Below are positions 50,273-50,653 of a stretch of DNA of 56,351 nucleotides, piece after piece. Made by a program: the position numbers and the translations under genes. Numbering within the stretch: the first letter of the stretch is position 1; every line of letters starts with the position of its first letter. Source of the stretch: an uncultured Clostridium sp. GTDB lineage: Bacteria > Bacillota > Clostridia > TANB77 > CAG-508. The stretch spans positions 1 to 56,351 of the forward strand of contig USDF01000002.1 of assembly GCA_900553405.1 (NCBI GenBank). The letters run 5' to 3'. Below the pieces are notes generated by a model. The model saw nothing but the letters and a program-made list of their open reading frames with translations, did no database searches and had not been told where the DNA came from.

Positions 50273-50653
50273 TTAATTAACTTTATAATTTCTATATTTT
50301 TCACACAAATTTAAAGTTGAATAATTGTTAATTTTTTCAATTGGAATTATATATATGTCTATATTATCTGTCAATATAAACACTTCATCTATGTTTGTAT
50401 TAATAATTGTTTTATATGTTTTTCCATTAGTTCCACCACAACTTTTTAAAGCTACTTGATAATTTCCATATTTAGTCTTACACGATGTTGCTTTTACTTG
50501 TACTCTGCGTATTTTATTATCTTTATCTACAATTAAATCATAATCTTGTGTGTCATTTAAAGGTATTGAAACTATATAGCCATTAGAAGTATAATATGCA
50601 ATTGCTATTCCTAATCCAGTATTTCCTTTTTCTTTATTTGTACTAAATTTCAT
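50273..50653 (-). CDS. PD-(D/E)XK endonuclease of the group I intron-associated family (I-Ssp6803I-like), free-standing
   Basis: 126 aa, AAGGAGGG RBS. KGNTGLGIAIAYYTSNGYIVSIPLNDTQDYDLIVDKDNKIRRVQVK fits the D...(Q/E)xK core of that family. Confidence 0.7.
   Translation of the reverse strand: MKFSTNKEKGNTGLGIAIAYYTSNGYIVSIPLNDTQDYDLIVDKDNKIRRVQVKATSCKTKYGNYQVALKSCGGTNGKTYKTIINTNIDEVFILTDNIDIYIIPIEKINNYSTLNLCEKYRNYKVN

Follow-up and report, generated by a model that had tools for sequence, protein, structure and literature searches.

A free-standing PD-(D/E)XK endonuclease gene beside an intron-split tRNA-Tyr gene in a gut Clostridium: a candidate for homing with an intron partner

The window analyzed here, a stretch of 56,351 nucleotides of contig USDF01000002.1 from an uncultured Clostridium sp., carries an open reading frame (ORF) for a small PD-(D/E)XK nuclease just downstream of a tRNA-Tyr gene that is split by a group I intron without any ORF. 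Here, we propose that the product of the ORF is a homing endonuclease of the I-Ssp6803I (PD-(D/E)XK) family, encoded by a free-standing gene and specific for the adjacent tRNA-Tyr DNA, and that the intron acts as its shield and as a partner moved in trans. We consider this reading somewhat probable. Direct support was obtained for the family and fold, the conserved catalytic residues, the purifying selection, the patchy distribution and decay of the gene, its co-occurrence with the intron, the tRNA-gene neighborhoods, and the lateral movement of the intron.

The nuclease gene and the split tRNA-Tyr gene

The features of the locus, all on the reverse strand, are as follows.

50273..50653, reverse: 126-aa PD-(D/E)XK (PDDEXK_5, I-Ssp6803I-like) endonuclease gene, ATG start, TAA stop
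50657..50664, reverse: ribosome-binding site AAGGAGGG, 3 nt (50656..50654) from the ATG, assigned from its sequence
50704..50709, reverse: TATAAT box in a spacer insertion of ~37 nt unique to this lineage; no recognizable −35 box
50734..50761, reverse: A+T-rich hairpin AAAAACAAG-GAGA-CTTGTTTTT with a 9-bp stem, plus a T-run; weak terminator candidate
50763..51070, reverse: tRNA-Tyr(GUA), whole split gene including the intron (ARAGORN with introns allowed)
50763..50812, reverse: tRNA-Tyr 3' exon with encoded CCA (ARAGORN; intronless alleles)
50813..51034, reverse: 222-nt group I intron lacking an ORF, located between anticodon positions 35 and 36, with an omega-G end (RF00028; ARAGORN; intronless alleles)
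51035..51070, reverse: tRNA-Tyr 5' exon, ending ...GACUGU with U-1 before the 5' splice site (ARAGORN; intronless alleles)
51097..51173, reverse: tRNA-Met(CAU), first gene of the small tRNA operon (73 bits)
51194..51222, reverse: consensus sigma-70 promoter TTGACA-17-TATAAT before the tRNA-Met/tRNA-Tyr pair (consensus scan, 12/12 hexamer matches)

I-Ssp6803I, the founder of the family, is encoded in a group I intron of a tRNA-fMet gene. An earlier interpretation of this DNA from its letters alone (the sequence-only reading) had assigned the ORF to this family by motif, and the profile search bore the assignment out, with no sign of an unrelated nuclease family: the product matched Pfam PF11645 (PDDEXK_5) over residues 6–113 with an E-value of 4.3e-18 and a score of 66.1 bits against a cut-off of 26.1. 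An NCBIfam search with the ORF returned no family. Among the PDB sequences, phmmer retrieved only I-Ssp6803I (2OST; E 8e-5), whose YDL and QVK segments are aligned with YD39L and Q52-V-K54 of the ORF product. Alignments of 10 and 43 homologues showed no variation at D37, D39, Q52, or K54. The product was modeled by AlphaFold2 with a pLDDT of 88.4 and a pTM of 0.83, and Foldseek with this predicted model placed the 2OST chains at ranks 1–4 (TM 0.72–0.81, E 7e-8 to 4e-7), whereas the next matches (other restriction-fold nucleases, Hjc) had E-values of 3e-3 or worse, four orders of magnitude weaker. The median pairwise dN/dS of intact copies is 0.23–0.26, which indicates purifying selection.

Judged from the sequence and the predicted model, every computable feature of the I-Ssp6803I family is present, and the sole defining habit that is absent is the location inside an intron. 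The ORF product and I-Ssp6803I of Synechocystis PCC 6803 share PF11645, the aligned D...QxK residues, the best structural match (TM ~0.8 with the predicted model), a similar size (126 versus ~150 aa), and the tie to a group I intron located in the anticodon loop of a tRNA. They differ in that the present gene lies outside both the intron and the tRNA, 109 nt downstream, in that the tRNA is Tyr(GUA) instead of fMet, and in the host (gut Clostridia versus a cyanobacterium); their sequence identity is ~25%.

The gap of 109 nt separates the CCA end of tRNA-Tyr (50763) from the ATG of the ORF (50653), so that the downstream position proposed by the sequence-only reading holds, with a slight correction of its 110 nt. 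The ORF lies 160 nt past the 3' splice site, outside the tRNA, and is thus not intron-encoded. The same reading took the gene to be its own terminator-separated unit. The hairpin (50761..50740 for the hairpin proper), the T-run (50738..50734), the TATAAT box, and AAGGAGGG are all present, but the consensus scan called neither a terminator at 50734..50761, where the stem has just two G–C pairs, nor a promoter at 50704..50709, where a −35 box is lacking. The spacer of most relatives is ~70 nt long and has no TATAAT, and relatives, too, have a homologous hairpin ahead of the ORF. The promoter at 51194..51222 is likely the source of read-through transcripts reaching the ORF, and expression of the ORF in this way is no less likely than from a promoter of its own. 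Transcription as an independent unit is thus the weak point of the sequence-only reading.

ARAGORN with introns allowed gave tRNA-Tyr(GUA) with a 222-nt intron after position 36. The same exon/intron junction is given by the intronless alleles in 21 species of the genus, and exact removal of the intron gives back a canonical tRNA-Tyr. The match to RF00028, obtained with a 400-nt stretch, has an E-value of 9e-11, and its score of 46.1 bits is below the gathering score of 50; the group I assignment is nevertheless safe because of this E-value and the exact exon junctions. Rfam scans returned no match for this intron with a 1.4-kb stretch and no intron matches in 13 homologous loci, and the introns of relatives were found by blastn and an nhmmer profile instead. 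No ORF is listed within the 222 nt, as had been claimed from the sequence. Since the split gene is the sole tRNA-Tyr gene in this 98.9%-complete, 1.47-Mb, 27% G+C assembly, the intron presumably must splice. The tRNA-Met(CAU) neighbor was found at most homologous loci too.

Distribution and histories of the nuclease gene and the intron

The genus sample consisted of 42 species genomes, which are species representatives assembled from metagenomes. The state of the ORF beside the two forms of tRNA-Tyr was as follows.

Intron-bearing tRNA-Tyr, 14 genomes: ORF intact in 5, full-length with a stop or frameshift in 2, remnants in 4, nothing in 3
Intronless tRNA-Tyr, 21 genomes: ORF intact in 1 (G013), adjacent pseudogenes of a divergent allele in 2, a distant remnant in 1, nothing in 17
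tRNA-Tyr not found, 7 genomes: ORF state left unscored

The ORF or a trace of it was thus present in 11/14 intron-bearing versus 4/21 intronless genomes. In G025, the closest relative of the present genome (G000), a clean internal deletion of 306 nt has reduced the ORF to its first 19 nt and its last 56 nt. The side-by-side occurrence of intact, stop-bearing, internally deleted, and remnant copies in one genus points to the lifestyle of a selfish element.

For the order, the ORF profile and the tRNA-Tyr-plus-intron DNA both served as queries against one draw of 401 genomes. The intron-bearing allele occurs in ~76 of these genomes and a near-full-length ORF in 42 (40 open, 2 with one stop); 38 of the 42 are in intron-bearing genomes, and 33 of those lie 0.5 kb or less downstream of the intron. 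About half of the intron-bearing genomes have no intact ORF, and among the matches listed, an intact ORF was found in just 4 of approximately 283 other genomes with a tRNA-Tyr match. The association is therefore asymmetric: the intron without the ORF is common, and the intact ORF without the intron is rare. Among the best 80 homologous loci in GTDB genomes, the intron is directly upstream in 61 and an intronless tRNA-Tyr in 2; ~6 loci are cut at contig ends, and ~10 lie elsewhere. The homologues are thus strongly associated with intron-bearing tRNA-Tyr genes and, in phages, with tRNA genes generally (see below), contrary to the lack of association that would have spoken against the sequence-only reading.

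On a species tree built from one gene, RelA, the state of the intron changed at least 12 times within the genus, and it differs even between species with 97–99% RelA identity (G000/G025 versus G030; G026 versus G064). In independent pairs on this tree, the ORF changes with the intron 3.7 times and in the opposite direction 0.1 times (p ~0.125).

The intron of G000 and G025 is 98–99% identical to that of G061, a species with only 90% RelA identity. Comparison of G000 with G061 gave 96–100% identity for the segment from tRNA-Met to the 3' end of tRNA-Tyr, 70% and 49% for the flanks, and 83% for the ORF; the sister species G030 and G065 have no tRNA-Tyr intron. The near-identical introns, the divergent flanks, and the intronless sisters together indicate lateral movement of the intron. 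The ORF has a separate history. G026 and G024 are 97% identical in RelA, 98.6% in the intron, and only 82% in the ORF, and ORF alleles differ by 17–24% among species with 94–97% identical RelA. Because dN/dS is near 0.2, this divergence reflects allele replacement and not fast evolution. In G030 (RelA 99% identical, intronless tRNA-Tyr; L030, G030:C1:171799-174683), the spacer shares 96% identity with that of the window as far as the start codon, and the nuclease ORF is replaced, precisely at the start codon, by two unrelated small ORFs of 51 and 120 aa, for which a Pfam search returned no match. The ORF together with its spacer behaves as a swappable cassette, and the intron is a separate unit.

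Islands also enter this site. Tyrosine integrases (PF00589) lie directly downstream of tRNA-Tyr in G003, G065, and G011 (L026, L031, L044). The integration of islands 3' of tRNA-Tyr explains the ORF remnants that lie 1–9 kb from the tRNA (G001, G012, G137, G200, G357) and locus L090, where a 3' fragment is all of tRNA-Tyr that stands before the ORF. About 10 homologues lie away from tRNA-Tyr, one of them behind a displaced tRNA-Tyr 3' fragment, consistent with island insertion, and the others behind short elements with a ...CACCA end (see below). No integrase accompanies the nuclease gene at the typical 70-nt spacing.

An intact ORF stands ~70 nt downstream of an uninterrupted tRNA-Tyr in four genomes of the order sample (G013, G068, G396, G139) and at one GTDB locus (L119). 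Divergent introns that had escaped detection were considered for these cases and rejected, as ARAGORN finds an uninterrupted tRNA-Tyr there. G396 and G139, which belong to different families, carry a compensatory change of the anticodon stem, C29T/G43A, 7 bp either side of the insertion site. This allele occurs in just 5 of the 401 genomes: the two just named, one with a trace of the ORF, and two without the ORF. The chance of finding two of the four intact-ORF intronless genomes among five variant carriers is ~0.002, a rough value that is not corrected for phylogeny. C29T/G43A is a possible target-escape allele.

Proposed homing with an intron partner and its alternatives

Two further tRNA genes of the same assembly are built alike. 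Their features are the following.

G000:C9:4575-4887, reverse: tRNA-Thr(UGU), split by a 237-nt group I intron (51.7 bits, RF00028), within L002 (G000:C9:3137-6333)
G000:C9:4112-4498, reverse: 129-aa HNH endonuclease gene (PF01844), ~75 nt downstream of tRNA-Thr
628-951 of L017 (G000:C28:1-3500), forward: tRNA-Asn(GUU), split by a 247-nt intron, directly after 5S rRNA

In the genus, a full-length HNH gene lies beside the tRNA-Thr intron in 17 of 22 genomes and remnants in three more (20/22 in total), compared with a gene or remnant in only 2 of the 20 genomes without this intron. In independent pairs, the HNH gene goes with the intron 5.4 times and against it 0 times (p ~0.06). Behind a hairpin after tRNA-Asn, an ORF of ~125 aa was found in G030, G031, G015, and G013. 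It matched no Pfam or NCBIfam family and is termed HNH-like solely from a CxxC...HH...CxxCH pattern and a pairwise E-value of 9e-4 to the Thr-side HNH protein. In G000 and G019, tRNA-Asn is followed instead by an island with a large serine recombinase (PF00239 + PF07508). For each of the three split genes (Tyr, Thr, Asn), the assembly has no second gene with the same anticodon. Since unrelated nucleases occupy the same position behind three intron-split tRNA genes, the arrangement is probably functional and not accidental, and this three-fold convergence of predicted genes appears to be the strongest argument for that view.

Phage relatives keep the same company. Homologues with 31–54% identity occur in a T5-like coliphage, a Pseudomonas phage, and a Bacillus phage, in all three cases (3/3, GenBank) within tRNA clusters, and in 11 of 11 IMG/VR contigs the ORF is inside a phage tRNA cluster; one phage homologue lies 84 nt after an intronless tRNA-Tyr. 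This placement agrees with an enzyme that, like I-Ssp6803I, is specific for the DNA of tRNA genes, and the free-standing state is widespread in the subfamily. SegB, a protein named in PMC13096335, is a free-standing GIY-YIG homing endonuclease encoded in the tRNA gene cluster of phage T4. Like the phage relatives of the ORF, its gene stands free among tRNA genes; unlike the present system, it belongs to another nuclease family and has a phage context without an intron.

In the mechanism that we propose, the enzyme would cut intronless tRNA-Tyr alleles within the anticodon stem-loop or close to it, as tRNA-fMet genes are cut by I-Ssp6803I, and a donor with the nuclease cassette would provide the template for repair of the break. 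The 222-nt intron, by splitting the target, would shield the chromosome that carries it. It may also be copied along in trans, which would amount to collaborative homing. Once the allele is protected, the nuclease gene would be free to decay or to be swapped. Such a homing endonuclease with an intron shield would account for the family tie, the tRNA habit, the asymmetric intron association, the decay cycle, the HNH convergence, and the rare stem variant. More tentatively, and as a possibility short of probable, we suggest for this order of gut Clostridia with small genomes an order-wide two-part selfish system in which free-standing nucleases of at least two families (PD-(D/E)XK, HNH) would each target one tRNA gene (Tyr, Thr, or Asn), and ORF-less group I introns of the anticodon loop would spread and persist by splitting these targets.

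Demonstrated cases of collaborative or trans homing are limited to phages: F-CphI/psbA, a T3/T7-like system, and MobE/I-TevIII (PMC3984707, PMC2790892). In cyanophage S-PM2, the free-standing F-CphI lies beside an ORF-less psbA group I intron, and a T3/T7-like analogue is known (Zeng, Bonocora and Shub 2009, reviewed in PMC3984707). As in F-CphI/psbA, an ORF-less self-splicing intron in a highly conserved gene adjoins a free-standing endonuclease gene here, and the two co-occur strongly. The differences are that F-CphI/psbA and the T3/T7-like system belong to phages, concern protein-coding genes, use other nuclease families, and have demonstrated cleavage of the insertion site; the present case concerns a bacterial chromosome, a tRNA gene, and a PD-(D/E)XK protein known from sequence, and its two parts have separate histories. 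In phage T4, the free-standing MobE moves the I-TevIII intron in trans (PMC2790892). The likeness is that a neighboring free-standing endonuclease mobilizes, by co-conversion, an intron without a working endonuclease of its own; the difference is that MobE is an HNH enzyme that cuts nrdB away from the intron, which hitch-hikes. A 2020 preprint raised the number of intron-split bacterial tRNA classes from 4 to 21, and neighboring endonucleases were outside its scope (10.1101/2020.01.27.920355). Our literature searches returned no description of the chromosomal arrangement of a split tRNA with a free-standing endonuclease.

Several observations weigh against the mechanism proposed here. The sign tests on independent pairs, though in the expected direction, are underpowered (p ~0.125 for tRNA-Tyr, ~0.06 for tRNA-Thr), and the tight linkage (~160 bp) alone yields or inflates co-occurrence. 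The one clear conversion tract, shared by G000 and G061, stops at the 3' end of the tRNA and leaves out the ORF; the ORF can therefore be exchanged while the intron stays in place, an outcome that would not be expected of simple co-conversion after a cut in the anticodon region. Across 49 loci, intron and ORF identities are weakly correlated (Spearman 0.17), and introns that are at least 97% identical go with ORFs that are 74–100% identical. As to the question raised by the sequence-only reading of whether intron and endonuclease are gained and lost together, presence and absence do co-vary (3.7 versus 0.1 pairs, underpowered as noted), but the sequence histories are decoupled, near-identical introns being found with ORFs of 74–85% identity. 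The tRNA-Tyr 3' flank is an integration hot spot, so that some of its turnover has nothing to do with homing. An intact ORF is retained next to an intronless tRNA-Tyr in five genomes. In three of these carriers (G013, G068, L119), the anticodon stem-loop is unchanged, so that either the intron is unneeded for immunity or the enzymes are silent or recognize another site, and the enrichment of the putative escape allele is based on just five genomes. The collaborative-homing arrangement suggested from the sequence thus finds backing in the association with the intron and the tRNA and in the two parallel HNH modules; it fits less well with the five intronless carriers and with an intron and an ORF that are not one inherited block.

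The decoupled histories of ORF and intron, the conversion tract ending at the tRNA 3' end, and the five intact ORFs beside intronless tRNA-Tyr genes would all be expected of a free-standing homing endonuclease that spreads by intronless homing without a functional tie to the intron. Its target would be the 3' part of tRNA-Tyr or an intergenic insertion site, its carriers would be protected by the cassette itself or by polymorphisms of the flanks, and the intron would hitch-hike or be independently mobile; the MobE system corresponds to this explanation and not to an intron shield. It is also favored by the phage relatives that adjoin intronless tRNA genes (84 nt after tRNA-Tyr in one case) and by paralogous cassettes with the same hairpin behind other elements. 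However, an enzyme independent of the intron leaves unexplained why 90% of the near-full-length ORFs occur in the 20% of genomes with the intron, why the ORF without the intron is much rarer than the intron without the ORF, why unrelated nuclease genes take the same position at two other intron-split tRNA genes, and why a rare anticodon-stem variant is enriched among intronless ORF carriers. We regard it as rather unlikely, but as the main alternative. That the ORF is a small PD-(D/E)XK nuclease not involved in homing, with a cellular or defense role or as a passenger of elements that use the tRNA-Tyr 3' end, seems improbable to us; its association with the intron would then stem from linkage and shared ancestry. 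The integration hot spot at the 3' flank with the integrases of G003, G065, and G011, the spacer and ribosome-binding site of G030 that drive unrelated small ORFs, and the purifying selection on intact copies agree with such a role, whereas the solved structure nearest to it in sequence as well as in fold belongs to a true homing endonuclease with a tRNA gene as its target. Moreover, the gene never occurs with an integrase at the typical 70-nt spacing, the frequent pseudogenes and allele replacement across near-identical hosts better fit a selfish element, and the position beside tRNA genes is conserved in unrelated phages.

The sequence-only reading had also offered that the endonuclease moved out of the intron. 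This concerns the origin of the gene and is compatible with homing either with or without the intron as a partner. The intron-encoded founder of the family (title of the 2OST entry) speaks for it, but no copy of the ORF was found inside a tRNA-Tyr intron among the ~60 measured ones (of ~140 matching copies), all of which are 201–247 nt long and too short for the ORF. All homologues found, including 14 phage loci, are free-standing, which makes this the more widespread state within the subfamily. We consider a past location inside the tRNA-Tyr intron very improbable.

Collaborative or trans homing is the favored model for the merging of ORF-less ribozyme introns with free-standing endonucleases, and its experimental basis is a few phage systems. 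If the order-wide two-part system suggested above is true, it would be the first chromosomal, bacterial case, and natural empty, shielded, escaped (stem variant), and decayed alleles would show the assembly of composite mobile introns such as that of I-Ssp6803I. In bacterial chromosomes, the layout of two parts is repeated at three tRNA genes, where the nucleases are unrelated. Its naturally occurring alleles number in the dozens (empty, intron only, intron with intact gene, intron with decayed gene, gene without intron, and a possible escape variant), and the system, whose putative DNA target is short and known in sequence and whose enzyme is 126 aa long, is directly testable. It may also explain why streamlined genomes retain group I introns in essential tRNA genes that are present in a single copy. 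The known habit of the I-Ssp6803I family, so far that of a single cyanobacterial intron, now takes in a wide range of free-standing genes that are linked to tRNA genes, in bacteria as well as in phages.

Further elements of the locus and the window

On the side of the ORF facing away from the tRNA, the locus is bounded by two features.

50137..50174, no strand assigned: 17-bp perfect hairpin between the ORF and the convergent gene; downstream limit of the variable cassette
49423..50118, forward: glycosyltransferase-like gene, convergent with the ORF

Homology with G025 and G030 picks up again at this hairpin. A perfect TTGACA-17-TATAAT consensus is present at 50346-50374 on the reverse strand, inside the 3' part of the ORF and facing the convergent downstream gene; it may be a chance product of 27% G+C DNA.

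A conserved ORF of ~93–99 aa with the motif ...NGS-x-K-x-x-E/K-x-TNL-x-Y-x-EPH-x-VIIK... is the first gene of islands at both tRNA-Asn and tRNA-Tyr. It was found at L017:1189-1488, in the serine recombinase island, and downstream of tRNA-Tyr in G065 and G016 (L031, L038; tyrosine integrase), and it matched no Pfam family.

Some homologous cassettes with the same hairpin lie behind promoter-preceded elements of ~67 nt, which start with an 8-bp palindrome (GATTGATA...TATCAATC) and end in ...GGCACCA like a tRNA 3' end. These elements had no Rfam match, and four copies showed no covariation. They occur at the following positions.

L116:2066-2137, L122:2361-2431, L121:738-808, and L110:225-295: ~67-nt elements
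L073 and L111: further ~67-nt elements
L097, L105, and L113: elements of a second type

Elsewhere in the window, a 666-aa AAA_15/AAA_21 (AbiEii-like) ATPase is encoded at 5181-7181 on the reverse strand and is possibly part of a defense system.

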